Assembly (NCBI RefSeq): GCF_026571515.1
Contig: NW_026863603.1
Location: 62,001-126,000 of the forward strand
DNA length: 64,000 bases
DNA from: Ruditapes philippinarum
Taxonomy: Eukaryota
Direction: 5' to 3'
Shown here: positions 10,269-59,650 of the stretch, piece after piece
Layout: the number at the start of each line of letters is the position of its first letter
How positions within the stretch are numbered: the stretch's first letter is position 1
Translations under genes and position numbers: made by a program
The notes under the pieces: model-generated
What the model saw: only the letters and a program-made list of their open reading frames with translations
What the model was told of the DNA's origin: nothing
The model's database searches: none

Positions 10269-10774
10269 TGTAGCAGATTTTCTAAACTTTTTCCTTTTAA
10301 TTTCCCTTTAACTTTTACTACATTGAAGACAACAAAATTCACTTTTATATTCAGATTTTATTTTCACTTTTACATCCAACTATACTTTTTAATCACCTTT
10401 TAACAACTTTTTTTAACACTTTCTACACTTCACTTCTTTTACACTTTTTACACTTCTTACGCTTCTACCACTTATATCGCTTCTACCAAAATAAGATTTG
10501 TAATTCACTTATATAGTGTTGTCTTCCCGCCAATTTAAAGAGTCATGAATATCATGATATGGAGTAATTCATAAGTGAAATAAATTCCCGCCAATACCAA
10601 AATACACAATTCATAAGTTTTGGAGTAAAAGAAATATAATATTTCCCGCCAAATACAAAACATGCACAATTCATAACTTTTGGAGTAAAATAAATATAAT
10701 ATTTTCCCTGCAAATACAAACAGACATAATTCTCATGATTAGGAGCTAAAACAAAAATCGTGTAATTCACGACA
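10269..10774 (-). repeat. 3' LTR (506 bp)
   Basis: TGTAGCAG...CACGACA, near-identical to 18816-19315 apart from mostly 1-bp indels. On the minus strand it is preceded by the PPT-like TTGGCCGGAG (10775-10784). Confidence 0.95.
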
Positions 10775-11169: not shown

Positions 11170-12330
11170 TCATTTATTGCATTGTATAGCAATGGTAATC
11201 GTCTTCATATTCAACGCGACAAAATACAGGTTCTTCCCCTCTATATGTAGTATAGTGCGATAACCTGTCCTAGTCCAGACTTCAACTTCTGTGCACAACG
11301 TGTGTCTTTCTATTTCCTGTCCTTCATCTTCCATCAGATATATCAATAATCTCGATTTCTGAATCGTCTGTATCCGAATTTGTATCAATCAACATCATCA
11401 TATACATCACTACTGCACATAATGTCCATCTGCTTCATAACTTCAATGTATAAATCTAATGTTCAACATTTATGTTCTCGCATTTGTCTCGTCTCCATTG
11501 CCGTAATCATTAGAAGCAGAAGACAAGCCATCATTTTACATTATTGTTCATGAAAATAATCGTTGTTTTTGCACAAGGACAAGCGTCATCAGGTTACGAT
11601 ATATTATTCATATCTGCGACGAGACATGCCTATCACTACCCTGCTGTTCGAATAAGGGTCAATTTTTTGCACATGGTCCGCCGCAATCATCATGTCACTA
11701 TGTATTGCAGCATAAAGACTACTTTTGGTCGACACGGAAGCGTCATCAGCTTCTATGAATTAGCAAGTAGATCTTATATTATCGTATTAGGAGCCACCGT
11801 AAACGGTCAAGCTTTGCATGTTTGTATCCAATCCAATTACCACTTGCCTCTCGATATTGTTTATATCATGAGAAAACATACCTTGTAACTCTCTTCTGTT
11901 ATCGGTCATTCAGTCGTCGCAAATGCAACATCACTTATATCAGAATTAAGGCGTCACTGCTAATCTCCTCAAGATCACTATTTATGGTGTGGCAATATTC
12001 ACATGAATACGTTTGGAGAATAGAACCGCTTTCCTTCTGAAGCATCATTGTCAATGTTTTTCTTTGCAACATTGTCTGATATCTCCAGTTTCTTGCGAGA
12101 TAAATAGCAGAACCTATTCTCGTGGCATTTTAACAGCGGTCCATGCCATGTATTCTTAACTCAAATGTTCTTTAAGATAATCCCTCCTTATGCTAGTCCC
12201 TTTACAGCCTTTGGATAGGGCACTTGAAACTCCCCTAGAGAGCTGTGATGTTTTTTCCATCATGTGCCTTAGCCTAAGTTCTCTTTTGCTTATAATCTCT
12301 ATTACAAAAAAGCACACTCGGCCGATCCAT
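11170..12330 (-). pseudogene. Extra ORF of the Bel/Pao element: two C2H2 zinc fingers plus an acidic region (frameshifted as assembled)
   Basis: Reading across 1-bp indels from ATG 12330 gives ECAFCNRDYKQKR..L.RHMMEKH and FKCPIQGCKGTSIRRDYLKEHLSKIH (C-x4-C-x12-H-x4-H), then SDLEEISSD and DTNSDTDDSEIEIIDISD. The 3' end is approximate. Confidence 0.7.
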
Positions 12331-12779
12331 TTCAATAACTATGTTACAAAAAATTATAATTTACTTTGGTTATCCTGAACTGTCAATGAGCTTCTGAACA
12401 CAAATAATACCAATACTCGTCAGTTGCACGGATATCAAGGATTTTTTGCCGCCAAAAAATTTACTGTATAGAATTGCTCCAACTTATTCGCGCGTAAAAT
12501 CACCAGTGTGTTTAACATGCCCCAATTTTGTTCGCGCCGTACCGTCACGTGATATAAAATTATTCGTAACCCTATGTTATTCGTACAATTTCTTCAAGGA
12601 TGAAACATATTATATTCCTTAATGCTTTGAATGTCCGTGCATAAATAGTATTCCACACTTCTTTCAATAAATAATTCAAACTGGTTCCCCGCTGTATGGG
12701 ATTTCCCCAACAACCAAAGTATTCGTCGTTTAATACCTATGGGTTTGTAATACTAAATATTAAGGCGTAATTTCGTAAA

Positions 12780-15700
12780 TTTTGCCCGTGCCTTTCTCCT
12801 CGGGACGTATACCAGTTTCTTTCTTTGCGTTTGGTCTTATATCCTCTGTCTCTGGAATAAGAAGTTTTTGAAGTTTCAATAGGATAAAGTAAGCTTAAAG
12901 GTCTTTTAAGCACTTTTTTGGATGCAGTTTCAATATCTGCAGAACGAACACAACCATCGGAAACTAACATACAGATGAATGACTTTTCCTAGCCTCCAGC
13001 TACCTCTACTAGTATTATCTTTTGATAAGCACTACATCACCTACATTTGGATTAAATTGAACTTTATGTTTTCCTTGTTTCAGATTTGTTTGAGTTCTTT
13101 CCCTAAGACTACATAAATATTCGTCTTTCCATATTTTCCAGAAGGAATCTAAAAGCCGCTGTCCTTTTTTCCATATTGCCAACAATTTATCCTCTGAACT
13201 TTCTATCACCTTAAAATCTGGGTCATCTGAAGATATTTCAATTTCAGGAAACCCAACATTCGGGTTCAAACATATGAGTTGTGAAGGTGTCAGCGTGATA
13301 TTGGAGTTTATATCTTCTCCAACATAAACTTAATGGGCGACAGTTCACAATAGCTTCAACTTCCTTTATGATAGTTATAAGCTGGTCGCTGTCCAATAAC
13401 TTTCTTCCAATAGATTTACGTAAACTTCTTTTAGTTAAACCAACAAGTCTTTCATAGAAGCCGCCCATCCATCGGAGCGATTTCTACAATGAACCTCCAT
13501 TTAATACCCTCACAAGAACTGTAGGTTTGAACATCATCACTTTTCAAAATTAAACTCCATAGCAACTCAAATTGTACGTTTTGCCAGCTTAAAAATGTAA
13601 CGCATTGTCACTGATGACTCTTGTGGTTTTCCTCTGCATGCTATGAATCTCTGAAAACTGTTTAAAAATGCATTTGTTGTCATGTCTTTGACCATTTCTA
13701 GATGAACTGCACGTGTGACCATACATGTATATAGGCACACCCACACCTTTTTTATGGTTTTGATTGTCCCTTATGTATAATGGTCCCGAGATAATCCAAT
13801 CCAATATGACTGAAAGGTGTTGATTTTGTAACTCTTGAACGAGGCAACGGAGCCATAAGAGGCATTTTATACGCTCCGCTTTCAACTCGACGACACACTA
13901 AACACTTATGAAAACTTTTCGTACCGTAGCTCTTCCGCTCGGTATCCAGTAACGATATCTAAGTTGACTTAGTGTTTGAGACACACCTGAGTGAAGCAAA
14001 CGCTTATGTTCCCTTTCGACAATTGACATTGTTAAAGGATCATCGCGAGGTAGCAATAACGGATGTCTAGCAAACTCCGTTTAAAACAAGCATTTTCTAA
14101 ACGACCCTTGCACCTCAAAAGGCCGTTTATATCAATGAACACACCCAGTTGCTGCTGTAAATTGCATTTTTTCTTTCCTCTGATAGACTCATAAACGTCC
14201 AAAAGATGTTTGTATTGCGCATGTTTTATCCACATATTTTCAGCTTCTTGAATTTCCTTCGATGTTGGAATATGTGAATCATAGTTTTCCTTTTTCATTT
14301 TACCGATTGCTCTTTTAACATATGCTGTGACACGTAATAGCTTCGTCATCGAAGAATATTTTGTTTGATCAATTTCAAATGGAGCACACGAAGGAAAACA
14401 TTCGTTCTTTGCTCCATATGCAGAAAACACACACACTTTCACTTTTCTTCTTTTCTTTTACATTACATTTTGTTGCCATTGCTTTGTCCATTCTATCATC
14501 TTCTTTAAACGTTAACTCATCTAATGTCCTTTCGGAAATGTCTTGCAATAGCCACTCAGGACCATGCCACCATGACGAATTTTTCACAAGATCTTTTGTA
14601 GAGCAACCCCGACTGGCTATATCAGCAGGATTGTCTCTAGACGTAACATAATGGAAGGACACATGTTTGTGGTCCTTTATTTCAGTAACTCGATTTCTAA
14701 CAAACAACGGAAGCTGTTTTCCGACATAATCCATTTTAATGCACACTGAGAATCTGAGAACAAAATGAACTTCGTCAATTTGCATCTTTATTTGCTCTTG
14801 TATAAAGGCTAAACATCGTACCCCTATAAGTACAGCAAGGAGTTCAAGTCGTGGAATACTGATGTTTGAAGTTGGAGCAAGTCGAGTCTTTGAAAATACT
14901 ATTTCGATGTGCTGTTGTGAATTCCTTTTCTGCATCAAATATATAACGGTAGCGTATGCTTTGGTAGAGGCATCACAGAAACACACAAGAATATTTTTGT
15001 TATCACCTTCACTTACAATGCATCGTGGGTTGGCATGTTCACTTATTTCACTGAGATCTCGTTGGATTTCATGCCATACAACAATGTCTTCTTCGTCAAT
15101 TGGCTGGTCCCAATCGACTTTTTTCTTCCACAGTGTTTGAATGAGTACTTTTCCTCTAAGCGTAACTGGTGCAAATATACCTAGAGGGTCAAATACAGAG
15201 GCAATTTTGCTCAAAAATGACACGTTTAGTTACACACTGAGTTGTCGATTTATTCACTTTCTGTATCGCCAATGTATCCTTATGTCTGTTCCATTCAAGA
15301 CCTAACACTTTAATCACAGTTTCATTTGCTCTGTTTTCAGGTGGAATACTTTCTGTCATGTCTCTGTTGTTAGACGCCCACTCGCGAAGATTCATGCTGG
15401 CATCGTCGAAAATTCTTTTGGACCTAATATACAAGTCTTTCGCAGCTTCAACGTTTTCTGTTCCCGTTACAACATTGTCCATATAAATATCTAGTCTCAG
15501 TTTCTTGGCGATTTCATTGTTATAGCACTCCAAGTGATAATCAATTGTTGCTCCCAATAAGAAAGGGCTTGACACAATTCCAAAGGGGATCCTACAGAAC
15601 CGGTATTCTTGTACCTGATTTTGCGATATGTCTGGGTGTTCAATATCTTTTAACCATATGAAACGAGTGACATCTCTTTGATCTTTCTGCAACCCAACTT

Positions 15701-18455
15701 GGAGGAAAGCCTTCTCTATATCTAAAACAATCTTATGTAGTCGAAATCTTAGCAGAATTCCACACAAGTCATTCAAAAGCACGGGTCCTCTGTAAAGGCA
15801 GTCGTTTAGACTATTATTTTCAACCTTTGATTTAGCTGACGCGTCATACACAATTCTCAGCTTTGTTGTTGATTTGTCAGGCTTTATTCACTGCGTGATG
15901 AGGTAAGTAATGGATATGTCTATTCTTTTCAGAGGTCTCAACTTTTTCTATAATTCCCTTTTCAAGCTGATCTTGAATAACAGAATCATATTTCTGTAAT
16001 ACATCTGGGTTATCTTTGAACCTTTTCACTAATGACTTAAGTCGTCCAAAAGCTAGAGGACGATTTTCTGGAATTTCATAATTGTCGCCTCTCCACGGCC
16101 ACTTGACATAATATCTGTTATCTTTGAACACAAAACTTTCTTTGAACTTATCTATCGCTTGATCATCCTCAGTTCTTTCATTTGTGCTATCTTTCAATCC
16201 TATTGTTTCTATATTCCAAAAGTCTTCTATGTCAGGTAATTTTGGAACACATGTGTCAACTGTTGTAAACACTTGTGTCTTAGTTATGTTGTTGCCATAT
16301 GATAATATGAGCATATTGGCATCAGTAACGCTGTCATCGATTTCACTTGTTCTTCCTGAAAGAATCCAACCAAGTTTTGATGACAAGAGGTATAAGCCTG
16401 GCTGAATTTCTATTTTATGTCCTAACACTATATCTAAGTAATAATCATTTCCCAACAGCAAATCAATAGAATCTGTGTATTCTTTCAGTCGGTATATCAT
16501 CCGCTAGAGTAAGATTCTTGATTAACGATTTGAACTCTCCGTTATTAGATATAGACACTGGTTTTCTTTGAATGCTTCCTGTAATTGTTGGAACAATATT
16601 TGCTGTTATAGCGAAATTCTGTCCATCCTTTAATTGAATATTCAATTGCGTAGACATGGTTCTAATCACTTTAGGTTTGTCACTCCCAAATGTAACTAGA
16701 CGAATCTCTTGCCTACTTTTCTTCTTGAGGTTCAAAGATTTAGCCAGTCTCTCAGTTATGTATGTTCTTTGCGACCCTGAATCTAATAAGATTCTTACTT
16801 TCTTTTTATTTTGACCGTCTGGATCACTAATCTCAGTGCGCGATGTTTGCATCATCACTATTTCATTAGAAGATAACAAAGCACTTTCAATACAAGCTTT
16901 ATCATCCGTAGAATTTCTAAGAATTTCCTTTGGTTTTGCTCTATCTTCAGACACACATGCTACTTCTTCTAACAAATTTACACTTTCTTGCAGAGATGCC
17001 TTTCTAAATTTTTCAGGGCATAAGCTTCTGTGGTGTACATTTGATTTATTGCAATACACACAAAACACGTATACTTTTACAGTCAGGAGACATGTGTCCT
17101 TCTCTTAAGCATTTGTAACAGCATCCTTTATTTGAGCTTTTCTTTTCGTCGATTGTTTTAAACTTCGGACATTCGTCACTCCAATGATTTTTACTACAGA
17201 ATCTACATATTCTCTTATGTTGTTGTTGTTTTTGATGATGTGTTAGAGGCGTATGTCCTTTCTTGTCATATGCAGTCAGAGCTCCGGTAGTGTTACTTGT
17301 TGTTGGATTACCCCTGTAGCTCTTAAAAGTATTTGTTGATCTTTGAAACTGTGGGTTAACTCTTCTATCAGATACAAAATTAGCACTGACTGGTTTCGGT
17401 CTGTCTGACTTTTCTCTGGATACAATATACTGTCTGAGAAACTCACGAAGCTTGGTTAACGTCCACTTATTGTCTGCACCCTTTTGTACTTCAAGATGCA
17501 TAAGAACTTCACTTGGTAGTTTGCTCCGAATAATTGATACGAACACTTGTTGCTCCAAACTCTCTTGCATAACCTCCAAACTTCTCAAGTGCTTTTGTAT
17601 TTTGTCATAAAAGAATCGCAAACTTTCAGTTGTATCTTTAGCGGATGCAACGTTCACCAGCCCCTTATAATGCAAATCTATAATGTCTTGTTTATCTCCA
17701 AATCTTTCCTTTAGAATTGTTATGGCAATACCGTAGTTTTCATTAGATAATGTCAGTCCAGCGATAGCACCTCTAGCTTCTCCAACCAACTTTCCCTTTA
17801 AATAGTTGAACTTGTCAACTGGCGACAGATTGTCATTTTCATGTACAGCACTAGAGAAAGAGTCCCAAAATTCCATCCATTGCAGTTTATTTCCATTGAA
17901 GGAAACTATGTCTAACTTTGGCAATTTGACAGTATTCTCACTCTTAATTTTGAGACTGTGTTGCTTGTCAAAGAATTTCTGTTGCATTTTCATTTGCTCT
18001 TCTGCCCGTTCTTGCTGATGTTCAAAGAAGGCTTGTTGAAGTTTCATCTGAACTTCACACATTTTTTGTAAAGCTGATCCTTCTTCGTCCGACTCCTCTT
18101 TCATAATATTCTCTGCTATTTTGCTTTTCAGGTCGGTCTGTACATTTTTCAGTTTAAAGGCTATCGACAAAGCCCTATCAATCAAGACCGAATCAATTTC
18201 AATCATCTCCTGAATAAATTCACTATCTGAATCACCAATTGCACGCGCTACCTTTTCTGACTGAACAGTAAGCTTATCTATATAAATATCAATCTTAAGT
18301 TTACTTTCATTGACAGAATGCTCCAGCTGCTTGTATTCTTCTGGGCTTTTGCTCTCAATACTTGTTTCTAATAAATTATCTCCAGTCCGTAATTCCTTCT
18401 CAAGGAAATTAAAGTAGCGTGTGCGCACGCCTTTTAGATATGGTAAGTCACTCAT
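12780..18455 (-). pseudogene. Bel/Pao gag-pol polyprotein (frameshifted as assembled)
   Basis: Gag with DUF1759-type VKLPKLDIVSFNGNKLQWMEFWDSF and Cys/His knuckles; protease LLDSGSQRTYI; RT DIEKAFLQ...PFG...YMDN; Pao-type RNase H FCDASTKAYA...IPRLELLA; integrase Zn-binding region and core GGFYERLVG; DUF5641-type FWKIWKDEYL. Split over successive ORF fragments; the 3' end is approximate. Confidence 0.93.
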
Positions 18456-18785
18456 GATTATTATATAAATATTATAAACACACAAAAAAATCACAGTAAA
18501 ATTATTCAAAATTTACCTCAGTGATTCTTGAATTTATTCAACACTTTTTTTAGTTCACTTTTTATATTCCTTTGAGAAACACTTTATTGATTCTGGTTGC
18601 CACTTCGCCTTCAATTTGTTTTCACGCACTAACACATTTCAGGATACCATACATCACTATTTTCTTTGACCGAATCGAGAATCCTTTCATTCCAACTGTA
18701 AGATATTTGTTTTCGCATCTCACAGAGACATCATATATACGTTGTGAAGAAATTCTTTTTTGTGGAAAGTCTTCAAATTCTATTC

Positions 18786-18808
18786 TCGATTCCCGGGTTC
18801 CGGCGCCA
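18786..18808 (-). promoter_or_regulatory. Primer-binding site, tRNA-Phe-like
   Basis: Minus strand TGGCGCCGGAACCCGGGAATCGA lies 7 nt inside the 5' LTR boundary. It closely matches the complement of the metazoan tRNA-Phe 3' end (TGGTGCCGAAACCCGGGATCGA). Confidence 0.75.
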
Positions 18809-18815
18809 AATTCAA

Positions 18816-19315
18816 TGTAGCAGATTTTCTAAACTTTTTCCTTTTAATTTCCCTTTAACTTTTACTACATTGAAGACAACAAAATTCACTTTTATATTCA
18901 GATTTTATTTTCACTTTTACATCCAACTATACTTTTTAATCACCTTTTAACAACCTTTTTTAACACTTCTACACTTCACTTCTTTTACACTTTTTACACT
19001 TCTACGCTTCTACACTTATACGCTTCTACCAAAATAAAGATTGTAATTCACTTATATAGTGTTTTCTTCCCGCCAATTTAAAAAGTCATGAATATCATGA
19101 TATGGGGTAATTCATAAGTGAAATAAATTCCCGCCAATACCAAAATACACAATTCATAAGTTTTGGAGTAAAAGAAATATAATATTTTCCCGCCAAATAC
19201 AAACATACACAATTCATAACTTTTGGAGTAAAATAAATATAATATTTTCCCGCCAAATACAAACAGACATAATTCTCATGATTAGGAGTAAAACAAAATC
19301 GTGTAATTCACGACA
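18816..19315 (-). repeat. 5' LTR (500 bp)
   Basis: TG...CA termini, TATATAA on the minus strand near 19052-19058, and a U3 built from ~60-bp tandem units. Confidence 0.95.
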
Positions 19316-29402: not shown

Positions 29403-32400
29403 ATGGCTGCCGTTTATGAATTTCCAAACAAAATATCAAGCAATCATGCGATTACTTGGTCGCCAGACCATAGAATCAGCTTTTGTACAGATACGGCTAT
29501 GAAAATTATGGTAACACTTCTTTAAGCATGAGTTTTACATCGATTTTGGATTCTAAACATGATAATTACGCGTTTTGCTCGTATCAAGATAGGATGAACA
29601 CCACTATTTTGTTTCCTTATTAAATTTTTACATCATACTGCTTAACAATCAATTCTGATTATGACTAGCAGGCATAAAACGGGCCCATATTATATCATAC
29701 CCACTCAATAGTTAAAATATTTGACAGTGAATCATGCCACTTAGGCTCAAGTCCAGGACATAGCAGGTCACTTTATCATGATTAATCATCTGATCATGAA
29801 GAATTCCAATCATGAATTCTTTCAGTCATTGGCAGTGTATCATTTCCTTGTGAAAGTTAAGGCAATAAGTTTTGCAGGAAATTTTCCTTGACAGCCTGCA
29901 CGGGATCAATTACAGTATGGGGACTGGCTTAATTGTTCACTGGTAAATTTCTTTGTGTCTTACTCAAGTTACTGTCGTGATCCCGAGGGTAAACTACCAA
30001 CACCACAATCTAATACGAAAGTAGGCAAAGCCTATGAAAAAAACTTTATTCACTTTTATTTTAAAATTGTTAGTAAAATTGCTGATTGCTGGTGTCAGAA
30101 AACTGAAAATTTCTCTTTGGATGAGACCTTTGCCAAAAGAATAGTAATTTATATGCAACAGCTCTACTGAGATTTATCATGCTTTTCCTTTACTTACCCC
30201 AACAAAAGATCATTTCAAAATATTGACATACTGATACTGTGTATTCATTTAATCTCATCTCAATTACTTTCCAGTATATAAATTGTGGAGTAAACAACCT
30301 TGATATTAAAATAAGATGCCAACAGTCAAGTTTTCCTGTCAATGCTGATATACTAGATATACCACAGATGACAAACGTCCAACTTAAATTTCTCTTCAAG
30401 AATTTGTCAAGAGGTAATACTATAATGTGATTTATGCTTTCTTTCCTGATTGTATTGTTTGTTTGTTTATTTTTTCTTATTTTTTGGTGTGGGTGGTATT
30501 TTATGATTTATTACCGACTCAAAAGAGCTGTGAAATGTATAATCAAATGTTTTCAAGAAAGAAATGAGAATAACATGTGCTTTCAAACTTAAATTTTCAC
30601 CTTAGTGCATTAACCAGTTAAGTCCTATTAAATTGTATAAAGAGTTAACCAGTTACTGCACTTGTGTGACAAAATATTAGTTACAAATTGAGAAATTATC
30701 AATCACTTGTGTCTCACATCTCATATGTTCAATTATTGCTTTAATTTCAGAGGAATTAAAGACACTTTCAGTTGATAGGGTGATGAATCCTTGGAGATAT
30801 CAGTTTGATACAGTTGCTAGAACTGGATTTGCCTTTGCAGATTGGTCACCTGAAGGAGCTGATGCAGTTGGGAGGTAAAATATTGTACAATGTTTATTTG
30901 TACATTTGGGAGTAATTTATATAAAACAAAGTATTTTGTTAGGGTATATAGTTTATAGTCCATCCTTTCCATTCTTTATTATACCCCCGCACAACAAAGT
31001 TGTAAGGGGGGTATACTGGAATCAGCTTGTCTGTCCGTCCGTCCGGCCGTCCGTCCGTCGGTTTTTTCTTGTCCGCCCAATAACTTAAGATTCCTTTGAC
31101 CCTTAGTCTTCATATTTGGCATGGAGGTTAGTCATGATTAGTAGATGACCCCTATTGATTTTGAGGTCACTAGGTCAAAGGTCAAGGTCACAGGGGCCTT
31201 GACTTCAAAAAGCTTGTCCTCCCAATAACTTAAGATTCCTTTGACCTACAGTCTTCATATTTGGCATGGAGGTTAGTCATGATTAGAAGATGACCACTTT
31301 TTATTTTGAGGTCACTAGGTCAAAGGTCAAGGTCACAGGGGCCTTGACTTCAAAAAGCTTGTCCGCCCAATAACTTAAGATTCCTTTGACCTACAGTCGT
31401 CATATTTGGCATGGAGGTTAGTCATGATAAGTAGATGACCCCTATTGATTTTGAGGTCACCAGGTCAAGGTCACAGGGGCCTTGACTTCAAAAAGCTTGT
31501 CCGCCCAATAACTTAAGATTCCTTTGACCCATAGTCCTTATATTTGGCATGGAGGTTAGTCATGATTAGTAGATGACCCCTATTGATTTTGAGGTCACCA
31601 GGTCAAAGGTCAAGGTCACAGGGGCCTTGACTTCAAAAAGCTTGTCCGCCCAATAACTTAAGATTCCTTTGACCCACAGTCTTCATATTTGGCCAGTGAT
31701 TTTTTTTTCAATTTTCAAAACAACCTGTGGCTTTCTGAAGGGGAAAATATAGCGCGATAAATCAGAAAAGGGGAACATCAAATTCTAACAACTGAGAATG
31801 GTTTACTCACATATGTTTTAGAATATTCATTTTCAATTCAATTTAACATCCATGATACATGCTGGGGCTATCTGTAGTTCACTAGTTCTGTCTTAAGCTG
31901 ATATAAATCAGCTGCTGTTAAGTCATGGCTCTAGTGAAAAATGTGCAAAGGGCATTTTAGGGGAAAAATAATAGCATTTTTAGGGGAAAATATACCTATT
32001 TAGGGCTAGGGGAAACAGCCTTTATTCGGCTGTAAAATGCAGGAAAAAAATCACTGTTGGCATGGAGGTTAGTCATGATTAGTAGATGACCCCTATCGAT
32101 TTTGAGGTCACCAGGTCAAAGGTCAAGGTCACAGGGGCCTTGACTTCAAAAAATTTGTCCGCCCAATAACTTAAGATTCCTTTGACCCACAGTCTTCATA
32201 TTTTGCATGGAGGCTAGTCATGATAAATAGATGACCCCAATTGACTTTGAGGTCACCAGGTCAAAGGTCAAGGTTACAGGGGCCTTGACTTCAAAAAGCT
32301 TGTCCGCCCTATAACTTCAGATTCCTTTGACCTACAGTCTTCATATTTGGCATGGATGTTGATCATGACTATAAGGTGACCCCTATTGATTTTGAGGTCA

Positions 32401-35400
32401 CTGGGTCAAAGGTCAAGGTCACAGGGACCTTGACAAAAGCTTTTCTTCTCAATTGCTAAAGAATGTCCTGTCCGCAATGTATTGATTTTGACATTTTCAC
32501 ATTTGAAGCATGTAGAATACATAACTTAGCAATGCACTGGCTTAGTAACCTCAGATTTGGCAGGGAGGTTGTCCTTGAGCTCTAAATGGCCACTGTTGAT
32601 TCTGACAAAGTGGTATGCGGGGGTATTCACGACATGATAGTGGCAGTTCTAGTTTCCTTCCATTCCTTCCTTCCTTCCATTTCTTCCTTCCATTCCTTCT
32701 TTCTTTCTTTCCTTCCTTCTTTCTTTCTTTCTTTCTTTCTTTCTTTTTTGCATGAAGGTCTTGTTCCGATGCATTTTATTGCTGGTCAGTTAGGTAATGG
32801 TTACCCACTGAGGCTAAAGATTGATTTCCTATCAATCCTTAAGTTAAGCCATGTTTTTTGTCTTTGCAAAAGGAACATGCAACAAGCATTCATCATAATA
32901 GTTATTATTATATGCTTTAGAAACTTTATAACTTAGATTAGATCATTTTTGAAATTAAAATCAGCTTGTAATTTACAGTGACAGCTCATGTTGTTTTATT
33001 CTTGCAGGAGTATATTAGCTACATTATCACAAGATTATAGACTATGTTTATATTCACATGACCCGTATCTTAATGAATGGTTACAGGTAATATTTTATTC
33101 TATCCTCTCCTTATTAATTAAGGTATTTCATATATCATAACATTGTATGCTGTATATGGCTCATTTTCCATTTCATACTACATGTATGGAAAAAAATTAT
33201 GAGGTTATATGGTCTAGTATAAACAGTTGTAAGCAATAGGAAAGAGTGATAGAGCAAACAAACTTTCATACACCACTATAAAACTATGTTCAATTTTGAT
33301 ACTGCTCCATTGATTTCCATGATTAATAAATTTGCAACAGTCATAAATTATAGAAATAACAGGAGTCATCCACTGAAAATCAACGTTATGAATGTGTTGT
33401 ATTATAAATATTGAAAAGCATTTATTATTATAGTTGACATGATAATGTCCTGATCTTCATATGACATTGACATGAACTGTTATTAATATGCTGTAAAACT
33501 CTGGATTATTTCAAATGTAGCTTGTGGACCTGAGTGTGTTAAGATGTGAAGAAACACAACCGAAGCTTGACCTGAAGTCAGTCACAGATTACAACAATCA
33601 CAGGCTGTGGTGTTTAAGTCAGGCTGTCACTGGTAACCTTTTTGTGAAGATCTTTAAGAGCCTTATTTTAGTAATTAACAGTACATTTTATTTGTGAATA
33701 GTTCTAAATTATGACATACTGCTGTGCACATTGAAATTATTTATTAAATTTCTATGTAAAATGTTCAGCCTGATCAAGTCAAACCTGCCACTCTCTACTC
33801 CTACTGACTGAGCTACCTCAACTGCTTATACATGTACATTTGTCGATCAGATCCTGACATTGACTATGGTACAGTTACAATACATATATCCAGCCACCCT
33901 GTTAACAGATAGCTTTGACAACAACACTTTTTAGCTCGACTATTCGATAAGAATAAGTAGAGCTATTGCAGTCACCCGAGCGTCGGCGTCGGCGTAACCA
34001 CTTATGTTAAAGTTTTTGTAATAGTTCAAATATTTTCCAAGTCCATTGACATATGGCTTTGAAACTTTGCACACTTGTTCACCATCATGACCCCAATCTG
34101 TAGACAGGAGGAGGTAACTCTATCAAGCATTTTGACAGAATTATGCCCCTTTTTCGACTTAGAATTTACGTTAAAGTTTTTGTAATAGTTAAAATATTTT
34201 CAAAGTCCATTGACATATGGCTTTGAAACTTTGCACACTTGTTCACCATCATGACCCCAACCTGTAGACAGGAGGAGGTAACTCTATCAAGCATTTTGAC
34301 AGAATTATGCCCCTTTTTCGACTTAGAATTTACGTTAAAGTTTTTGTAATAGTTCAAATATTTTCAAAGTCCATTGACATATGGCTTTGAAACTTTGCAC
34401 ACTTGTTCACCATCATGACCCCAACCTGTAGACAGGAGGAGGTAACTCTATCAAGCATTTTGACAGAATTATGCCCCTTTTTCGACTTAGAATTTCCGTT
34501 AAAGTTTTTGTAATAGTTCAAATATTTTCAAAGTCCATTGACATATGGCTTTGAAACTTTGCACACTTGTTCACCATCATGACCCCAACCTGTAGACAGG
34601 AGGAGGTAACTCTATCAAGCATTTTGACAGAATTATGCCCCTTTTTCGACTTAGAATTTACGTTAAAGTTTTTGTAATAGTTCAAATATTTTCCAAGTCC
34701 ATTGACATATGGCTTTGAAACTTTGCACACTTGTTCACCATCCTGATCCCAACCTGTACACAGGAGGAGGTAACTCTATCAAGCATTTTGACAGAATTAT
34801 GCCCCTTTTTCGACTTAGAATTTACGTTAAAGTTTTTGTAATAGTTAAAATATTTTCAAAGTCCATTGACATATGGCTTTGAAACTTTGCACACTTGTTC
34901 ACCATCATTACCCCAACCTGTAAACAGGAGGAGGTAACTGTATCAAGCATTTTTTTACTATCAAGCACTTAGAATAGTCGAGCGTTGCTGTCCTACCGAC
35001 AGCTCTTGTTAGTGTCCTTGTTTGGTTTTTGGGTGTTTTTGTTTTTAGGGGTATACAGGTATACCCATACAATTCCAAAACATTTGTTTGAGAAAGTGAA
35101 TTTTAACCTTCATTTGTATGTACATGTGAACAAAAAATATGTCGCCAGAGCTTCTGAATAGGAAAGACAACATGCAAAAGAAACTACAAAAATAAATGAA
35201 AATAAAGATGTTTCAATGGTAAGCTTGAGTAACATATTCAAATGTAGTCTTCATTTATTGAAAAGATGGCTGGTTTGGGTTTTTTTTATATCTTTGTTGT
35301 TGTCATTGTTTTTGGTGTATTGCTGGCCAAATAAATACTTATTTGAATAATAAAAACACAAGTGAGGTGAATTTTGCAAGCATTTATAACATGTTGACTA

Positions 35401-42100: not shown

Positions 42101-45100
42101 GCAGTCTGATCAGGATCCATGCTGTTTGCTTACCAACTCTATTACAAGTGGAGAAACTGACAGCGAACAGCATGGATTCTGATCGGACTGCGCTGATGCG
42201 CAGGCTGGTCTGGATCCATGCTGGTCGCAAACGGACTATGTTGGTTTTGTCGTGACGCGGCTCAAATGTTGGTAAATACTTCAACAGGCCAAAACCAGGA
42301 TTTGATCATCTCTCACCACAGTGGAAGAAAACAGCTACCAGATTAAATATCAGATGTATTGATGACTTTACCACTGATCTCAAATGGCGGGAAAATTGTG
42401 TAACAAAACTATGTAACCCAGAACGTAAGTTAGATTAAAATATTAAACAAAAGTACAATCATATTTGTGCTATAGACCACCTTTGAGCATACTACATTTG
42501 CTGTAAAAGAGCATCTTTAAGCAGTCAAAAAATCTGTATTTTCAATTGCAACATTTAGTATGCAATATATTAAAATTTGTGCATAAAAACAGCTTGTTTA
42601 TCAAATAAAGATCACAATATGATACAGGTATTGACTTTATAGACACATTTAACAGTATATTATACGGTACACTTTTATCACATAACTTCTGCGCAGGAGT
42701 GTAATAAAGTCATGTAATAAAAACCATTTTACACTAGTGTAATAACACTGATGTGACGTCATTTGTGTTATATAAATAAACACAGTGTTAAAGTGCGTTA
42801 AAGTTAGCGTTAGGCATAGACGCATCAAAGAAAAAAAGCTCTTTTTAACTGTAAACTGTATGTGATAAATAAAATATTATATTTGTGTAGATTCAATACT
42901 AGATTTATTGAACGAGTTGAATAAAATCATACTATGCGAGCCAATACTAAATTTATTGAACATGTTGAATAAAACAATATTATGCTCGCCAGAGGCTAGC
43001 ATAATATGATTTTATTCAACTTAAAGCTACACTCTTTCAATATCCTCTTTATGTATTATCAGGTGCAATAAGATTTCATGATGTAAAAAAATGAAATTCT
43101 ATCAATGACTCAAAAAGATAGTAAAATGTAAGGCTATTTAACTATACACATGTCTTATATTTAAACTTTCTAATTTATTAATAGACATTCAAACTCCTGT
43201 GTTTTAGCTTCTCATTGCTTAGTTTAAAATTTGATATTGACCAACAGTAATAATAATGTTGCAAAATGACATCTGAAAATTGAAACATAGAATTCTTACT
43301 TTCTTTTTAGCTCACCTGTCACAAAGTGACAGGGTGAGCTTTTGTGATCGCTTTTCGTCCGGCGTCCGTCCGTCGTCCGTCCGTAACTTTTACTTTAAAT
43401 GACATCTCCTCATAAACCACTTAGCCAATTTCATCCAAACTTCACAGGAATGTTCCTTTGGTGGTCACCTTTAAAAATTGTTCAAAGAATTTAATTACAT
43501 GCAAAACTCTGGTTGCCATGGCAACCGAAAGAAAAAACTTTAAATATCTTCTTTTAAAAAATCATAAGAGCTAGAGCTTAGATATTTGGCATGAAACATC
43601 TTCTAGTGAGTGTCTACAAAGTTTGTTCAAATAAAAGCCCTGGGGTCAAAATTGGCCCTGCCCCGGGGGGTCATTGATTTTCCCTATATGCATATAGTAA
43701 AAACTTAAAAAATCTTCTTTTAAAGAACCCAAAGAGCTAGAGCTAAGATATTTAGCATGAAACATGTTCTAATGGGTGTCTACCAAGTTTGTTCAAATAA
43801 AAGCCCTGGGGTGAAAATTGGCCCCGCCCCAGGGGTCATTGATTTTCCCTATATGCATATAGTAAAAACTTAAAATATCTTCTTTTAAAGAACTCAAAGA
43901 GCTAGAGCTGAGATATTTGGCATGAAACATCTTCTAGTGAGTGTCTACCAAGTTTGTTCAAATAAAAGCCCTAGGTTAAAATTGGCCCCGCCCGGGGGGT
44001 CATTTATTTTCCCTATATGCATATAGTAAAAACTTAAAAAATCTTCTTTTAAAGAACCCAAAGAGCTAGAGCTAAGATATTTAGCATGAAACATGTTCTA
44101 ATGGGTGTCTACCAAGTTTGTTCGAAAAAAAGCCCTGGGGTCAAAATTGGCCCCGCCCAAGGGGGTCATTGATTTTCCCTATATGCATATAGTAAAAACT
44201 TAAAAATCTTCTTTTAAAGAACTCAAAGAGCTAGAGCTTAGATATTTGGCATGAAACATCTTCTAGTTTGTGTCTACCAAGTTTGTTCAAATAAAAGCCC
44301 TGGGGTCAAAATTGGCCCCGCCCCGGGGGGTCATTGATTTTCCCTATATGCATATAGTAAAAACTTAAAAAATCTTCTTTTAAAGAACCCAAAGAGCTAG
44401 AGCTAAGATATTTAGCATGAAACATGTTCTAATGGGTGTCTACCAAGTTTGTTCAAATAAAAGCCCTGGGGTGAATATTGGCCCCGCCCCGGGGGGTCAT
44501 TGATTTTCCCTATATGCATATAGTAAGAACTTAAAAATCTTCTTTTAAAGAACTCAAAGAGCTATGGCTAAGATATTGAGCATCAAACATGTTCTAATAG
44601 GTGTCTACCAAGTTTGTTCAAATAAAAGCCCAGGGTCAAAATTGGCCCCGCCCCGGGGGTCATTGATTTTCTTTTTATGTGTTTAGCAAAAACTTTAAAT
44701 CTTCTTTGAAAAAACCCAAATAGCTAGAGTTTAGATATTAAGCATGAAACATCTTCTAGTAAGTGTCTACAAAAGTTGTTCAAAAAAAAGCCCTGGGGTC
44801 AAAACTGGCCTGGCCCCAGGGGTGTCATTGTTTTTAACTATATGTGTATAGTAAAAACTTTAAAAAAAATCTTCTTTTAAAAAAGCCCAATGATCTAGAG
44901 CTTAAATGTTTAGCATGAAAACATCTTCTTATGGGTGTCTACCAAGTTTGTGCAAATAAAAGCCCTTGGGTTAAATTGGCTCTGCAACTTTGGGGGTGGG
45001 GTGGGGGTTGGGGGGGCCTATATACAGGTGAGCGACCTCAGGGCCATCATGGCCCTCTTGTTAGAAAGGTCAAGGTTAACCAAGGATGTTCATTCAGTTG

Positions 45101-48100
45101 AATGTATTCATATACTGTACAGAGAATTATTGATTTTATTGCATTACTTGAAAGGTTCTATTGGTGATCTACATGATGTATTAGAACTGTTTCGTCAACA
45201 TGTGTTGAGTAAAAACTGTAAGGATATTGAGACAGTAGATGACACAGGTAAACAGTGTCTCAGAAGACAAAAACTCAGAAGGTATTAATGTCTATGGCTT
45301 TTTCACAACTTACATCAACTTGCTAGATTAAATTTCATTTTTCATTCAATAGTTTATTCCATGAAAATTTACAGAATTCTTTTTACTGTTATGAATTCTT
45401 TAATTGCTGTTTATAAGGCGCATTTAAAGGTATATTTCATATAAAGTAATCATTTTTAACATTTTCATGAACTTACATTTATTTATTTTGTAATTTAGTA
45501 GTTTAAACTGTATTTATTCAAGTTCAATTATGAAATAAGATCTCTTCCTTTATATAAATCTTTCGTACCATTTATTATATAATCTAAAATACATTGTGGT
45601 TTACCTGTTAAAAAAATAATTTTTAGTTTGACTTTTCAAAGAATCGCAAGAGCTGTTGTACTCACCCGTATTGTCTGCATCAGTGTTGGCATCACTGTCA
45701 CACTTTGATTCAAGGTAGTAAGTTCCAAAACTACTAAAGGGGATGGGTTGCAACTTCACACTGATTATTTAACATAATAGGCACAGGTCCCATCACTCTG
45801 AGTTATCTTTCTTACAGAGTTATACCCATTTTCTTACTGTCAAGTACTGGGTAAAGTTAAGCAATCTGTCTTACAAACAGCACCTCTGTGTATAAAATCT
45901 TAATGGTTATGTATAGGACTGTGTTGGTCCTGTATGAATCTTTTTCCTGATTTCTAACTGCCAGTTTTCCTTCTCTAGATATGCAGCTAAGCTTAAGCAC
46001 AGATACAATAAAGAAAAAAATGTAAGTTTTTTATGTTTTTTATTAATTTGATGTATTAATAAAATTTGTATTGTTGGAATTCAGAGCTAGTTTTGTTAAA
46101 GTATTTTATTTCAGCTGCCAGGGGCAGGCTGTGGTTCACAGAAGAAAGAAACTTTACATTAATTGCTTAGTACTGGTTGGTTCCAGGAATGATAAATGCA
46201 TGTTAGTTTACAGACATTTGACTGAAATTGCAGACAAGAATAGAAGAATAGAATAGAATAGTGTTTATTACCAATCATGGGCCTTCTCAGGCATACAATT
46301 ACATAAAATAAATATCAGTACATTAAATGTAAATGTACATAAACAAAACAATAATAAGATAACATAAGCTAATTCTGATTTGATATCACAATTAAACTAG
46401 AAGGCCATGATGGCCCTGAAGTCGCTCACCTGTATATAGCAGACATGCTGGCTGAGAGTTACACCTATTTTATTATAAACTTTTTATCTTTATAATATCT
46501 ACTTTATTATTTTTAAAAATATACTTGAAAAATAAAACTTTTAAGTTTCTCGGAAGTCAATTTGTGTTATATTCCTTACATTTAAACCTCACCATAGGAA
46601 CATTCATACTTGGGGAGGTAAGAAATTTAGGTTGTTCCTACAAGATGTAGCAGATGCTCTATAGAGATTCTTACATTTGGAAAGAAATTTAAGTATTGTT
46701 ATAAAGAGGTTATTGCTTTACAGTGTGCTGATGTACAGAAGTTTTACTGTATATTATTCCATATATTTTATCTATATTTACATATATAGTACGATCAGGA
46801 GGAACTTATAGAAGAACTAGAGAAAGAAACAATTGACCTAAGGTGTAAGATCCTGGCAGTGTCTATGCAACAATGTGTGGCGAGCATTGAGGTGGAAAAG
46901 GTTTTGTCAGATTCAAACAAAGGTAATATAAATATATTCTTTAACCTTTTTCAGACACACTTTGTTTAAGAGATTTGCTCTGCTTGACGGTTGGAACTCT
47001 AAATTTTCAGATTTTAGTATATGAATACCAGAAGCGAACAAAAAAGGTATCACAGATTTCTTTTTTTCAAAGTTGTGGATTTGCATAGCATCCTTTGCAC
47101 AGTACCCTGTCTGATTATAAGCTGTACAAAATAAGATTTACATTGTACCATTCAACAGGATGCCATAGTTGTAAAATCATTATCTCATCATTGAACTTTG
47201 ATATTGTAATAGACTCATTGCAGTTTTAACTTATGAAATAAAATAAATGTGATACAACTCTTTCACATGCAGCTATAAAGAGAACATGTCATGAAGAATT
47301 AACTTAGTAATGTATCCTTGACATACGTAGTGACAATAGTGTTTATATTTCAGGGACAGGTCTAGCTGTAGTGTACAGCATGTATACATGGCTGAATCAG
47401 CACATAGACAGAGTCAATGATGTAGAGGGTATTGATGATACTAAGTTACAGCTTGGGAATATTCTCACAGATAAAAAATGTGAAATGAAATGTTATGTTT
47501 GTAATTCTGGTATCCTTTCACATTTTTAGCTCGACTATTCGATAAGAATAAGTAGAGCAATTGTAGTCACCCGAGCGTCGGCGTCGGCGTTGGTGTCCGC
47601 GTCGGCGTAACCACTTATGTTAAAGTTTTTGTAATAGTTCAAATATTTTCAAAGTCCATTGACATATGGCTTTGAAACTTTGCACACTTGTTCACCATCA
47701 TGACCCCAACCTGTAAACAGGAGGAGGTAACTGTATCAAGCATTTTGACAGAATTATGCCCCTTTTTCGACTTAGAATTTACGTTAAAGTTTTTGTAATA
47801 GTTCAAAATATTTTCAAAGTCCATTGACATATGGCTTTTGAAACTTTGCACACTTGTTTTCACCATCATGACCCCAACCTGTAAACAGGAGGAGGTAACT
47901 GTATCAAGCATTTTGACAGAATTATGCCCCTTTTTCGACTTAGAATTTACGTTAAAGTTTTTGTAATAGTTCAAATATTTTCAAAGTCCATTGACATATG
48001 GCTTTGAAACTTTGCACACTTGTTCACCATCATGACCCCAACCTGTAACAGGAGGAGGTAACTGTATCAAGCATTTTGACAGAATTATGCCCCTTTTTTC

Positions 48101-51100
48101 GACTTAGAATTTACGTTAAAGTTTTTGTAATAGTTCAAATATTTTCAAAGTCCATTGACATATGGCTTTGAAACTTTGCACACTTGTTCACCATCATGAC
48201 CCCAATCTTTAAACAGGAGGAGGTAACTGTATCAAGCATTTTGACAGAATTATGCCCCTTTTTCGACTTAGAATTTACGTTAAAGTTTTGTAATAGTTCA
48301 AATATTTTCAAAGTCCATTGACATATGGCTTTGAAACTTTGCACACTTGTTCACCATCATGACCCCAACCTGTAAACAGGAGGAGGTAACTGTATCAAGC
48401 ATTTTGACAGAATTATGCCCCTTTTTCGACTTAGAATTTACGTTAAAGTTTTTGTAATAGTTCAAATATTTTCAAAGTCCATTGACATATGGCTTTGAAA
48501 CTTTGCACACTTGTTCACCATCATGACCCCAACCTGTAAACAGGAGGAGGTAACTGTATCAAGCATTTTGACAGAATTATGCCCCTTTTTCGACTTAGAA
48601 TTTACGTTAAAGTTTTTGTAATAGTTCAAATATTTTCAAAGTCCATTGACATATGGCTTTGAAACTTTGCACACTTGTTCACCATCATTACCCCAACCTG
48701 TAAACAGCAGGAGGTAATTGTATCAAGCATTTTTTTCTAACTATCAAGCACTAAGGATAGTCGAGCGTTGCTGTCCTACCGACAGCTCTTGTTACTGTCA
48801 CAATATGTACTGTGATACCTATATACTGAATACATGTATGTCAATAATAACTGGTCAAAAAATAGATATTTGATAAAACTTTCCTTTACATATGTATCTG
48901 TGGTAAAAAATTCTATGCTTGTTAATTGTTTTCAGGTATCAGAAAATTGATGGGTTATGCAAGTAGAATTAATGCAGTCAGACACACAGTTTGACCACAG
49001 TTTTTTTTCAAAATCTTTTATTGAATATTGAATTTTTTTAATTAATATCTTACACTTAAAAATTCAAAGCTGTTAGACAATTTAGCTGAAATCCTTAACA
49101 ACAAACAGATCTCAATATGAACCATTCTAGATGGTTTTGTGACAATGGACATTTATTTGGTAAATTTTACTTGTTTACTTTTGATTGTTTAGGTACTAAA
49201 TAATATCTTATCTATTTATATACTAGTTTCTTGTATTAATAATTAAATAATACATTAGTATAAATATATCACACAATCTAAAACCATATGAGCCGTGTCA
49301 CGACAAAACCAACATAATGGGTTTGCGACCAGCATGGATCCAGACCAGCCTGCGCATCCGCGCAGTCTGATCAGGATCCATGCTGTTCGCTTACAAACCC
49401 TATTACAAGTAGACAAACTAATAGCGAACAACATGGATGCTGATCAGACTGCACGGATGCGCAGGCTGGTCTGAATCCATGCTGGTCGCAAACCCATTAT
49501 GTTGGTTTTATCGTGACGCGGCTCATATATCACCAAGGTTGCTGATGCAAATGTCTTTGAAACTAAAAGCCAATGTTCAACATGCAATTGTAACAGAAAC
49601 AAAAAGCCAAGTTAACAAGGACACCTGCAAGTGTCTCAAAAACTTAAAAGCAACAGTCACCAAGTATCCAAATGCAAAGTCCAAAAAAACTAAAAGTATC
49701 AGTAAAGTCCAAACTGCAAATATCTCAGAAACTAAAACCCAAAGTCATCAAGATCCAAATGTATCTGTTTCATTAGACAATGTTTTCATTGTCTTAGTAT
49801 CAAAGCAAATGAGCCGTGTCATGACAAAACCAACATAATGGGTTTGCGACCAGCATGGATCCAGACCAGCCTGCGCATCCACGCAGTCTGATCAGGATCC
49901 ATGCTGTTCGCTTACAAACCCTATTACAAGTAGACAAACTAATAGCGAACAACATGGATGCTGATCAGACTGCGCGGATGCGCAGGCTGGTCTGGATCCA
50001 TGCTGGTTGCAAACCCATTATGTTGGTTTTGTCGTGACACGGCTCAAATATTCTTATTTAAAGAGCTAAAGGTGCCGATAAGTTTTCATATGTAAATGTC
50101 ATAAAATCGACAAGCCAAACATCAAGGCTACCAGAGGGGTATGTATGGCCTTTTTCCAGCAGTAAGCTTGACCTTTATGGTATCGTTTTCACTAATGAAA
50201 TTCAAACATTTTGTTTGGACGTTAGTTATACAGTTTATATATATTTCAGATATGTGTTGTAAAAGTTTGCTGCCTGTACATGGAGTACAATACAGAACCT
50301 GTATTATATGTGATGGGACTGCTAGATCACCAGAAAGCCTAAACAGTATGTAACAGTTTTTACTTATTTTGTACTTGCACTCATCAAAACGTGGCTTCTG
50401 CCGTTGTTTTTGTATACTTTGTGTTTGTCAAAATACTTACTGTACTACATGTATGTAACTCCTGGCTATAGTGCATGTACGTGGATTTACTGAGACTGAA
50501 CAACGTTTATAGAATGTATAAAGAAGCACATTATAATTTATGCCAAAGATATATCACATCTAATAATTGTAGATATAGAGGATATTCAAATTTTTTCTAT
50601 AAATACATGATTTATTTTCATCGAGTGGTATGAAAATAAATATTTCATGAGTGGCGGTAGCCACGTCTGAATTATGGTAATTTTCATGCCACAAGATGAA
50701 AATAAATCATGTATTTATAGAAAAAACTTGAATTTTCTGTTTATTATGTACATTTTTCTCTTTTTTGCGATAAAATTTGAAAAACTTTCCCTTAAATTTT
50801 GTGTACTGGTAGAATTTAAAAGAAAGTAGTCCGGCAAGACACCAGTGAAAATACGGAAAATATGTTTCACTGCAGTGAAAAATAAATTTTTACAGTGAAA
50901 ATACGGAAAATGAAAATACGCATTTTATTTCATCAATATTTCTCAATATTTCTCAATATTTCATTTATAAGTATATAATAAAAGTTTTTATTATGTGATG
51001 TCCATTGAATTATCTCAGTATTTTCACAAATATCACGAAATGCATGTATAGAAATTCGTGTTATTTTATTTCAGATGTGGAATGGTTGCAAGCAGATTTC

Positions 51101-51221: not shown

Positions 51222-51956
51222 TTTAACCAGACTTTCCGCAGGGAAAAACTGGTTATTATATTGAGGTTTGTCGGTGGACGGGCGTAAACAATTTTTCTGT
51301 GCGCAACTCCTACATTTCACAATGGATTTTGACCAAACTTTCACAGAACCTTTGTCATCAAGTGCCCTGGCGCATATTGTCGGGGTTTTGTGATTGGATA
51401 ATATTTGACCTAATTATGGCCCTTTGTTTTTTTTCCTTATGTAGAATATATAGTGAACAATTTCTTCTGTGCGCAACTCCTACATTTCTCAAAGGATTTC
51501 GACCAAACTTTCACAGAACCTTTGTCATCAAGTGCCCTGGCGCATATTGTCGGGGTTTTGTGATTGGATAATATTTGACCTAATTATGGCCCTTTGTTTT
51601 TTTCCCTTATGTAGAAGATATAGTTAACAATTTCTTTGTGCGCAACTCCTCCTACATTTCTCAACGGATTTTGACCATACTTTCACAGAACCTTTGTCAT
51701 CAAGTGCACTTGCGCATATTGTCAGGGTTTTGTGATTGGATAATTTTTGACCTAATTATGGCCCTTTGTTTTTTCTTTATATAGAATATATAGTGAACAA
51801 TTACCTCTGTACGCAATTCCTCCTACATTATTCATGATTTACATTGCACATAGTTACATTTTTTGTTGCTTGTGTTTGTATTTTAACTACAACATATTTA
51901 TCTACAATGGTGATAATTGAAAACCTGGTTTCATAGCATTGCCATGTTTCTTGTTT
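51222..51956 (+). mobile_element. HINE-like element with about 3 tandem 170-bp units, between convergent gene ends
   Basis: Units at 51301, 51471, 51640 and a partial one at 51811; subterminal IR AACCAGACTTTC / GAAAACCTGGTT; CTTGTT end. Confidence 0.75.
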
Positions 51957-58471: not shown

Positions 58472-58754
58472 TGTCGATATGTATGATTGTATTCTATTCT
58501 TTCAATATTTAATGGTCAATATTCTGAAAAAGAATCAAACTATACGTAAAACATATATTTTCATCTTACTACATACAAAAACAATTTTATCTTATACTTC
58601 TTAATGAGATACAACTTAAATATAACATTGAGATTGTATTAAACTTTATGAAATAAAATATTAAATATCTTTTTTATCGCTCGTGAATGAAATACTGAAC
58701 TTTATTCTTGAGATTTTATCTACATACATGTTTATCAACATCATTCATAGTAAA

Positions 58755-59650
58755 TCACTCACTGTTTATCATTAACTTTATATCACTCACTGTTTATCAC
58801 TAACTTTACATCACTCACTGTTTATAACTTACTTTACACCACTCACTGTTTATAACTTACTACACATCACTCACTGTTTATAACTTACTTTACATCACTC
58901 CCTGTTTATAACTTACTTTACATCACTCACTGTATATAACTTTCTTTACATCACTAACTGTATATAACTTACTTTAAATCACACACTGTATATAACTTAC
59001 TTTACATCACTCACTGTATATAACTTACTTTAAATCACTCACTGTATATAACTTACTTTACATCACTCACTGTGTATAACTTACTGTACATCACTCACTG
59101 TTTATAAATTACTTTACATCACTCACTGTTAATAACTTACTTTATATCATTCACTGTTTATAACTTACTTTACATCACTCACTGTATATAACTTACTTTA
59201 AATCACTCACTGTATATAACTTACTTTACATCACTCACTGTATATAACTTACTTTACATCACTCACTGTATATAACTTACTTTACATCACTCACTGTATA
59301 TAACTTACTTTACATCACTCACTGTATATAACTTTTTTACACCACTCACTGTATATAACTTACTTTACATCAATATCTGTATATAACTTACTTTACACCA
59401 CTCACTGTATATAACTTACTTAACATCACTCACTGTATATACCTTACTTTACATCACTCACTGTAGATAACTGACTTTACATCACTCACTGTTTATTACT
59501 TACTTTACATCACTCACTGCATATAACTTACTTTACATCACTCACTGTATATAACTTTCTTTACATCACTCACTGTATATAACTTACTTTACATCAATCT
59601 CTGTATATAACTTACTTTACATCACTCAATGTATATAACTTACTTTTTAC
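58755..59650. repeat. 28-bp minisatellite, about 30 copies
   Basis: Unit CATCACTCACTGTATATAACTTACTTTA; decays into degenerate copies to ~59850, followed by (AT)n. Confidence 0.95.

Follow-up and report, generated by a model that had tools for sequence, protein, structure and literature searches.

Foamy viruses express the protein Tas from an internal promoter, and Tas activates this promoter as well as the LTR (passages of PMC12789967). Bel/Pao retrotransposons are usually described as gag-pol elements with an occasional env, and passages of PMC3118150 report that a few of them carry env. In the Tor elements of Oikopleura, the 3' gene, env, is driven by an internal promoter located in pol or in the post-pol spacer (passages of PMC4402516). 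Non-env accessory ORFs with low dN/dS, sORF1 and sORF2, are described for the MDG1 group of Drosophila Metaviridae (passages of PMC11952523).

Here, we describe an accessory gene in a Bel/Pao element of Ruditapes philippinarum, located in a 64,000-nucleotide stretch of DNA (the window). Like that of Tas/Bel1, the gene lies 3' of the structural genes, and the clam element bears one site cluster in its LTR and a corresponding one a short way ahead of the gene. Unlike Tas, the clam protein has a host-type C2H2 pair, the Bel/Pao element is without env, and the activity is predicted from sequence. No homology to Tas was found: the accessory proteins match zinc-finger families alone in Pfam, with no env match, and there is no viral structure match at E ≤ 0.001. 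The location between pol and the 3' LTR is also that of the third ORF, env, of some Bel/Pao elements, but the accessory protein has no membrane-like segment and is predicted to be a nuclear DNA-binding product. Tor is similar in having a 3' gene with an internal promoter (predicted in the clam element), although its product is an envelope glycoprotein, and the passages of PMC4402516 describe no self-regulation. The MDG1-group sORFs are likewise non-env accessory ORFs of an animal LTR retrotransposon, but they are small and upstream of gag, and sORF2 is a transmembrane FAST-like protein (passages of PMC11952523); by its position and hydropathy, the clam gene does not have these features. Searches of the open full-text literature, judged by titles and the first lines of abstracts, gave no description of an additional ORF with zinc fingers in Bel/Pao elements or in LTR elements of molluscs. 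The words "orf" and "zinc" are absent from the passages of PMC6238403, the supplementary family tables of which could bear on prior notice. It is thus possible that the ORF was annotated earlier in Repbase, Dfam, GyDB, subscription papers or supplements. New here are the enrichment of GGAG[CT] in the LTRs of the clade that carries the gene and the second cluster of these sites just upstream of the gene.

The Bel/Pao element and its accessory gene

The 9.05-kb Bel/Pao element is on the minus strand of the window (Table 1). Its direct repeats are LTRs of the TG...CA type, identical in 491 of 498 aligned columns (98.6%), and a GAAAT target-site duplication is present at both ends of the element. 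The gag-pol pieces match the Pfam families DUF1759, DUF1758 (protease), RVT_1, Peptidase_A17 and DUF5641 (integrase), which places the element in Bel/Pao. About 2.0 kb separate the end of pol, near 12755, from the 3' LTR, and it is in this gap that the original prediction had located an extra ORF.

Table 1. Features of the Bel/Pao element in the window (positions are those of the window)
Feature	Position	Strand	Basis
5' LTR	18816..19315	-	direct-repeat comparison
60-bp tandem units of 5' LTR U3, ACTCC (GGAGT on other strand) in each	19289, 19229, 19169		
GCGGGAA in 5' LTR U3 units	19253, 19193, 19134, 19073	-	
CATG-N5-CATG palindrome in 5' LTR	19099-19087	-	
TATATAA in 5' LTR	19058-19052	-	
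Primer-binding-site-like stretch (TGGCGCC...), directly after 5' LTR	18791..18809	-	sequence
Bel/Pao gag-pol, several frameshifted pieces in window copy	12755..18512	-	
Spacer, predicted internal promoter	12331..12754	-	motif clusters; promoter activity presumed
GGAGC in spacer	12480-12476	-	
GCGCGAA in spacer	12537, 12493	-	
TTGGCGG in spacer	12455	-	
Accessory gene, ATG 12330 to TAA 11174, many indels in window copy	11174..12330	-	
Two C2H2 fingers, then basic helix	12148..12319	-	Pfam zf-C2H2, 31.9 bits
Acidic D/E/N/S-rich tract, predicted disordered	11360..12000	-	
EIEIIDISD, SUMO-interaction-like motif	11333..11359	-	
C-terminal segment, predicted long beta-hairpin	11177..11311	-	model of homolog L076
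Stretch absent from 5 other copies of the window's family, common junction at short repeated hexamer	11255..12466	-	
3' LTR, site array as in 5' LTR	10269..10774	-	

In the window copy, the fingers, the sequence SDLEEISSD and the acidic tract are distributed over three shifting minus-strand frames from the ATG, in agreement with the prediction, and the same text is read in open frames of sister copies. A DNA search of the genome with the window gene gave 19 matches. The natural frame of the C914 copy (L002/L094) is open for 256 aa from Met, with both fingers inside, and that of the C7274 copy (L004) is open for 239 aa up to the stop; a JGI protein of 350 aa (P0005) starts at a later Met and reaches the end of the gene. 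The product is about 370 aa in sister copies. The frame of the window copy is broken by indels, as had been noted: its alignment with the C914 copy over 1065 columns has 77 gap events (short insertions account for 49, short deletions for 19) plus 44 substitutions. Between the C914 and C7274 copies, 800 columns contain 3 gaps and 5 substitutions. Since the window copy is so rich in gaps, mostly short insertions, while the sister copies have so few between them, the comparison suggests that the indels are probably uncorrected long-read (assembly) errors rather than decay.

The homologous stop is the TAA at 11176-11174, and the true C-terminus, RHTLRTEVEVWTRTGYRYTTYRGEEPVFCRVEYEDDYHCYTMQ, is a polar strand pair. 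The short hydrophobic C-terminal segment of the original prediction belongs to another frame and has to be withdrawn: the highest 19-residue hydropathy in 27 homologous proteins is 1.38, and none of them has a membrane-like segment or env-like anchor. A DNA transposon with transposase-like frames, presumably hAT-like by its motifs, sits within the accessory gene of the C7274 copy (L004/L005).

The protein family and its range

The family was collected by protein searches of the genome and inspection of 10-kb stretches. Ten Bel/Pao families (L074, L075, L076, L077, L078, L082, L086, L087, L088 and L090) have open frames of 264-468 aa with a Met just before finger 1, and in 8 of the 10 the LTR pairs are 96.6-100% identical. 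The check for a continuous ORF that the original prediction had proposed thus finds natural open frames in ten Bel/Pao families, and also in a gypsy-derived element. The latter, L079 and L085 with their relatives L080 and L084, is an LTR element of about 4.3-4.6 kb in which the gene lies behind a gypsy-type integrase tail; the gypsy label rests on an Integrase_p58_C match of 24.7 bits, below the cut-off of 27, and 41% identity to a full gypsy-type pol. No full-length gypsy parent of L079 was found, the nearest long pol being 41% identical and without the gene. These short elements (4308-8892 in L079) have retained the gene without most of the gypsy-type pol. An LTR pair was found in L079, L080 and L085, 97-99% identical, and the gene in all four has a C-terminal extension in common with the L087 Bel/Pao family. 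A different gypsy-type element, with 98.5% identical LTRs, is nested in the pol of a gene-bearing Bel/Pao element (L082:2206-6935).

Eight metagenome loci, with DNA identity of at most 72% to the loci collected here, also contain the gene, and six of them have a Bel/Pao integrase end directly upstream. Another 18 proteins from ENA or Logan, most with the full layout, are 41-58% identical to the nearest collected locus over at most the first 110 residues. The cluster representative of XP_060583393.1, from the R. philippinarum annotation, matches the genome exactly over 110 residues.

A 46-row integrase tree, the rows of which carry no lineage names, has one clade with support 100/99 that consists of all 19 gene-bearing and 9 gene-less rows; L150, L190 and L092 were left out for a missing or too short integrase. 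Outside this clade, the gene is present in 0 of 70 stretches (61 distinct elements), hand-chosen from 150 DUF5641 matches, 30 of them with 1.5 kb downstream only. Among 40 further loci inside the clade, 14 have a finger match, 6 a C-terminal match alone and 20 no trace, and some of the last have long open pol frames. In the family to which the window element belongs, one and the same deletion has removed the gene from five copies. The clade-wide range in the tree, the loci with no trace and the common deletion point to an old trait of one clade that single copies can lose, and have lost repeatedly. We make no claim about a donor or direction of transfer from the finger-region tree, which is mostly unresolved, and a host source gene for the finger pair was not found. 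One in-clade family (L195, L196, L201 and L207, the last at L207:2870-3680, minus strand) has an acidic tract, SIM-like motif and hairpin with no finger match; its gene may have decayed or may be a variant without fingers. A tyrosine-recombinase frame (PF00589, L148:4674-5699), probably a neighbouring transposon, follows an outgroup Bel/Pao element on its downstream side.

The layout is conserved at about 20-35% identity across families and hosts; besides the two fingers and the basic helix behind them, it comprises a Y-x-D-[IV]-S-D motif, the acidic tract, a SIM-like motif and the C-terminal segment. The two fingers, correctly recognized in the original prediction, have the zf-C2H2 profile match given in Table 1, the pattern C-x2/4-C-x12-H-x3-5-H and, in the predicted model, the beta-beta-alpha fold. 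In a sister copy, the recognition helices are QKRNLVR for finger 1 and RRDYLKE for finger 2. Two contact residues hardly vary, R(-1) in finger 2 and R(6) in finger 1, and position 3 of finger 1 is mostly N. The acidic tract has 20-38% D+E in the homologs. The SIM-like pattern, a hydrophobic core followed by S/D/E, is present in 23 of 27 homologs (6.6 in shuffles) and Y-x-D-[IV]-S-D in 19 of 27 (0.1 expected), both patterns having been composed after the sequences had been viewed. By the consensus that we take to define a SIM, the EIEIIDISD region is a putative SUMO-interaction-like motif.

An AlphaFold2 model of homolog L076, from a 13-row alignment, has a mean pLDDT of 56.7. The fingers are confident, with pLDDT about 90, residues 99-284 are predicted to be disordered, and a beta-hairpin is predicted at 306-340 (strands 306-321 and 324-340) with pLDDT above 90. 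With Foldseek, the finger pair superposes on 2DRP in the PDB at 1.8 Å over 58 columns (rank 2), a weak match with E = 0.018. We take 2DRP to be Tramtrack, a two-finger host factor that presumably reads AGGAT with R(-1), R(6) and N(3); the clam protein differs from it in having no BTB domain. Foldseek gave no match at E ≤ 0.001 in the PDB and viral models, and the hairpin was without a match; a search of the ESM Atlas returned generic C2H2 clusters alone. In a profile search of 1.84 billion representatives, the best 150 matches are multi-finger proteins of 483-5807 aa with 4-49 matched stretches. An LC8-type TQT motif in the hairpin, as we presumed it to be, was dropped, as it is not conserved.

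The comparison of dN/dS across related families, which the original prediction had suggested, gives an average of 0.20 in the finger region over 17 pairs at dS 0.15-0.5; these pairs were picked for intact Cys/His and amount to about five independent contrasts. In the acidic-rich stretches, dN/dS is 0.43-0.69 at dS 0.15-0.54, and in very young pairs, it is 0.25-1.37. A value of about 0.2 indicates that the finger region is under purifying selection.

Site clusters and the contact residue of finger 1

In the zinc-finger recognition code, R(-1) of finger 2 together with R(6) and N(3) of finger 1 predict a GGA core. GGAG[CT] occurs 32 times in 12 LTRs of the clade, against 5.4 ± 2.3 in shuffles, and 4 times in 11 LTRs outside the clade, against 4.7 ± 2.2, which is no enrichment. 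Of 512 five-mers, GGAGC and GGAGT rank 3 and 7 in the clade, and 316 and 234 outside. GGAG[CT] was chosen after inspecting the clade LTRs, and held-out tests weigh more: the held-out U3 regions of four N(3) families, two from other hosts, have 3-5 GGAG each. In the 260 bases upstream of the gene, which were examined afterwards, 22 loci have 39 GGAG[CT] against 6.5 ± 2.5. Control regions are flat, with 1 against 0.7 in the 3' UTR and 4 against 3.8 in the integrase-coding region. The repeats of L298 and L299 are not true LTRs (81% and 77%), and L298 and its near-copy L296 were left out of the five-mer ranking and the upstream counts; L287, L291 and L303 gave no LTR pair, and the pattern missed L187 and L191 in the upstream count. 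The LTR sites are retained in the deleted derivatives L099 and L302 and in the gene-less L301; the gene-less members of the clade have 11 sites against 1.9 expected, one counted repeat not being a true LTR. The gene-less, in-clade L300 (C5527), with a long open pol, has an LTR with one GGAG[CT] and no E2F-like site, unlike L301 and L302.

Both TTGGCGGGAA, which we take to be an E2F-like site, and a CRYG-N5/6-CRYG palindrome are enriched in U3 and upstream of the gene. The palindrome counts are 25 against 1.1 in U3 and 19 against 1.8 upstream of the gene, with no enrichment in LTRs from beyond the clade (2 against 1.1). Its window positions are 19312-19300 and 19099-19087, and it does not suit the predicted finger code. 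In the C914 copy, the spacer contains one palindrome and GGAGC twice, and a TATA-like run precedes the ATG in several spacers. Because these clusters of GGAG, E2F-like sites and palindromes match those of the LTR, and because of the TATA-like runs, the spacer looks like a second promoter. The idea that the fingers read the GGCGGGAA repeat was dropped, as E2F-like sites are enriched outside the clade too (6 against 0.4). In the gypsy-derived element, GGA[CT] forms a separate cluster ahead of the gene, 9 against 3.8 (5 of 1000 shuffles), and plain GGA in the U3 of this element is not significant (89 of 1000 shuffles).

The sites vary with position 3 of finger 1. Finger 1 can be read in 51 distinct, though related, loci. 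Of these, 29 of the 33 Bel loci with N/K(3), and 0 of the 13 with S/C(3), have two or more GGAG upstream of the gene. CGGT is found upstream in 12 of the 13 S/C(3) loci. The five gypsy-derived loci have 6-8 GGA[CT] each. Pooled U3 counts of GGA and GGT stand at 66:31 with N/K and at 11:17 with S. Ser(3) reads T at the middle base in the recognition code, so the switch from GGAG to CGGT appears to track finger-1 position 3 as the code predicts. The S(3) group requires 2 changes on the best tree, but the AU test does not reject a single clade (p-AU 0.38). Since this group may have arisen once, the covariation too may amount to one event. Some loci do not fit: L077 has N(3) but an LTR rich in GGT, and GGAG is missing upstream of the gene in its relatives L049 and L108. 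L277, with no site, and L281, with one, are rearranged copies.

Proposed role and alternatives

The analysis shows the gene and its layout, selection on the fingers, the range in one clade, and two site clusters that vary together with position 3 of finger 1. On this base, we give slightly better than even chances to a self-activating, foamy-virus-Tas-like transactivator of the element's own LTR and internal promoter, with binding and activation predicted. The two-finger protein would bind GGAG[CT]-type sites in its own LTR and in the predicted internal promoter. Host factors, acting through the E2F-like sites, would give basal firing of the internal promoter, and as the protein built up, it would amplify its own expression. 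It would then activate the LTR for genomic RNA through the acidic tract and short motifs. Deleted copies with LTR sites could still be copied, because the protein would act in trans. The transactivator reading put forward in the original prediction thus gains from LTR and upstream site clusters that vary with a finger contact residue, the activity itself being deduced. The acidic, SIM-like and YxDxSD motifs also fit repressors.

Could the same DNA targeting serve anti-silencing, the SIM-like and acidic parts blocking SUMO-dependent heterochromatin rather than recruiting polymerase? SUMO has a role in transposon silencing, and the frequency of the SIM-like motif (23/27) and of Y-x-D-[IV]-S-D (19/27) speaks for such a role, but we consider it unlikely, as the sites are placed closely ahead of TATA boxes and next to E2F-like sites, the arrangement of an ordinary activator. 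Passages of the review PMC10111866 name LSD, LSETD and LPDSD as SPOC-binding motifs, and LSD-type phospho-motifs bind SPOC domains; the clam motif is I/V-S-D, however, rather than the L-S-D named there. Self-repression as copy control, in which the protein would bind the same sites and, for example, compete with host E2F or recruit co-repressors, seems to us quite doubtful. GGAG and E2F-like sites do alternate in the window's 60-bp U3 unit, gene-less copies have multiplied (five with one common deletion), and SIM and LSD-like motifs occur in repressors (in part according to passages of PMC10111866). Nevertheless, most families have retained the gene across deep divergence, and site arrays are missing as well from the L300 lineage, which lacks the gene. 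The disordered tract is, moreover, strongly acidic (D+E 20-38%), and such tracts are typical of activation domains.

In a further reading, a host factor reads the GGAG arrays, sites and gene share no more than their ancestry, and the protein has its function elsewhere, be it at host genes, in integration targeting or on RNA. Both the gene and the sites are features of the clade, members without the gene keep their sites (11 against 1.9 expected), and the clade-specific palindrome (25 against 1.1 in U3) does not suit the fingers, from which it appears that host factors read these promoters as well. Two results make this reading unlikely as an account of the GGAG arrays: GGAG gives way to CGGT according to position 3 of finger 1, in the LTR as in the upstream cluster, and the gypsy-derived element, though unrelated, has a GGA[CT] cluster ahead of the gene (9 against 3.8). 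The original prediction had also raised the case of a one-off captured host fragment in neutral drift, which we find hardly credible. The window copy is broken and young pairs have dN/dS of 0.25-1.37, but open frames with the same layout occur at about 20-35% identity in different families and hosts, and dN/dS is about 0.2 in the fingers and 0.43-0.69 in the acidic-rich stretches. The neutral reading is already refuted for the family; it could hold for the window copy alone.

Returning to the Tas-like transactivator, we see an even chance that the clade independently evolved the switch of complex retroviruses: a captured C2H2 factor would drive an internal promoter and the LTR, finger and sites would change together, and a gypsy-derived element would have received the whole as a functional regulatory unit. 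If so, the feedback control of complex retroviruses would be present in an env-less invertebrate retrotransposon. Zinc fingers are usually pictured as host weapons against transposons, a picture that such a regulator carried by a transposon would reverse. The natural Asn and Ser finger variants, with their differing LTR sites, provide a test of co-change between protein and promoter, and deleted copies with retained sites make activation in trans testable.

As for transcripts, run X1, the RNA status of which is a guess, tiles the element. In run X10, which is RNA on record, short contigs overlap the fingers. A transcript start or splice for the gene is seen in neither run. In runs X23 and X24, labelled RNA-Seq, about 55% of the placed reads run on into unlike sequence and the loose ends cluster at GATC. 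These are probable proximity-ligation DNA libraries and were set aside.

Elsewhere in the window, a 420-codon open frame on the minus strand (57239-58501), with a coiled-coil look and a weak match to the ALIX V-domain under the cut-off, is probably a host exon. The window also has tandem arrays, each given here with its repeat period, at 31068-32434 (145 bases), 34002-34953 (164), 43533-44980 (165), 47615-48733 (164), 51287-51821 (170) and 58754-59646 (28).
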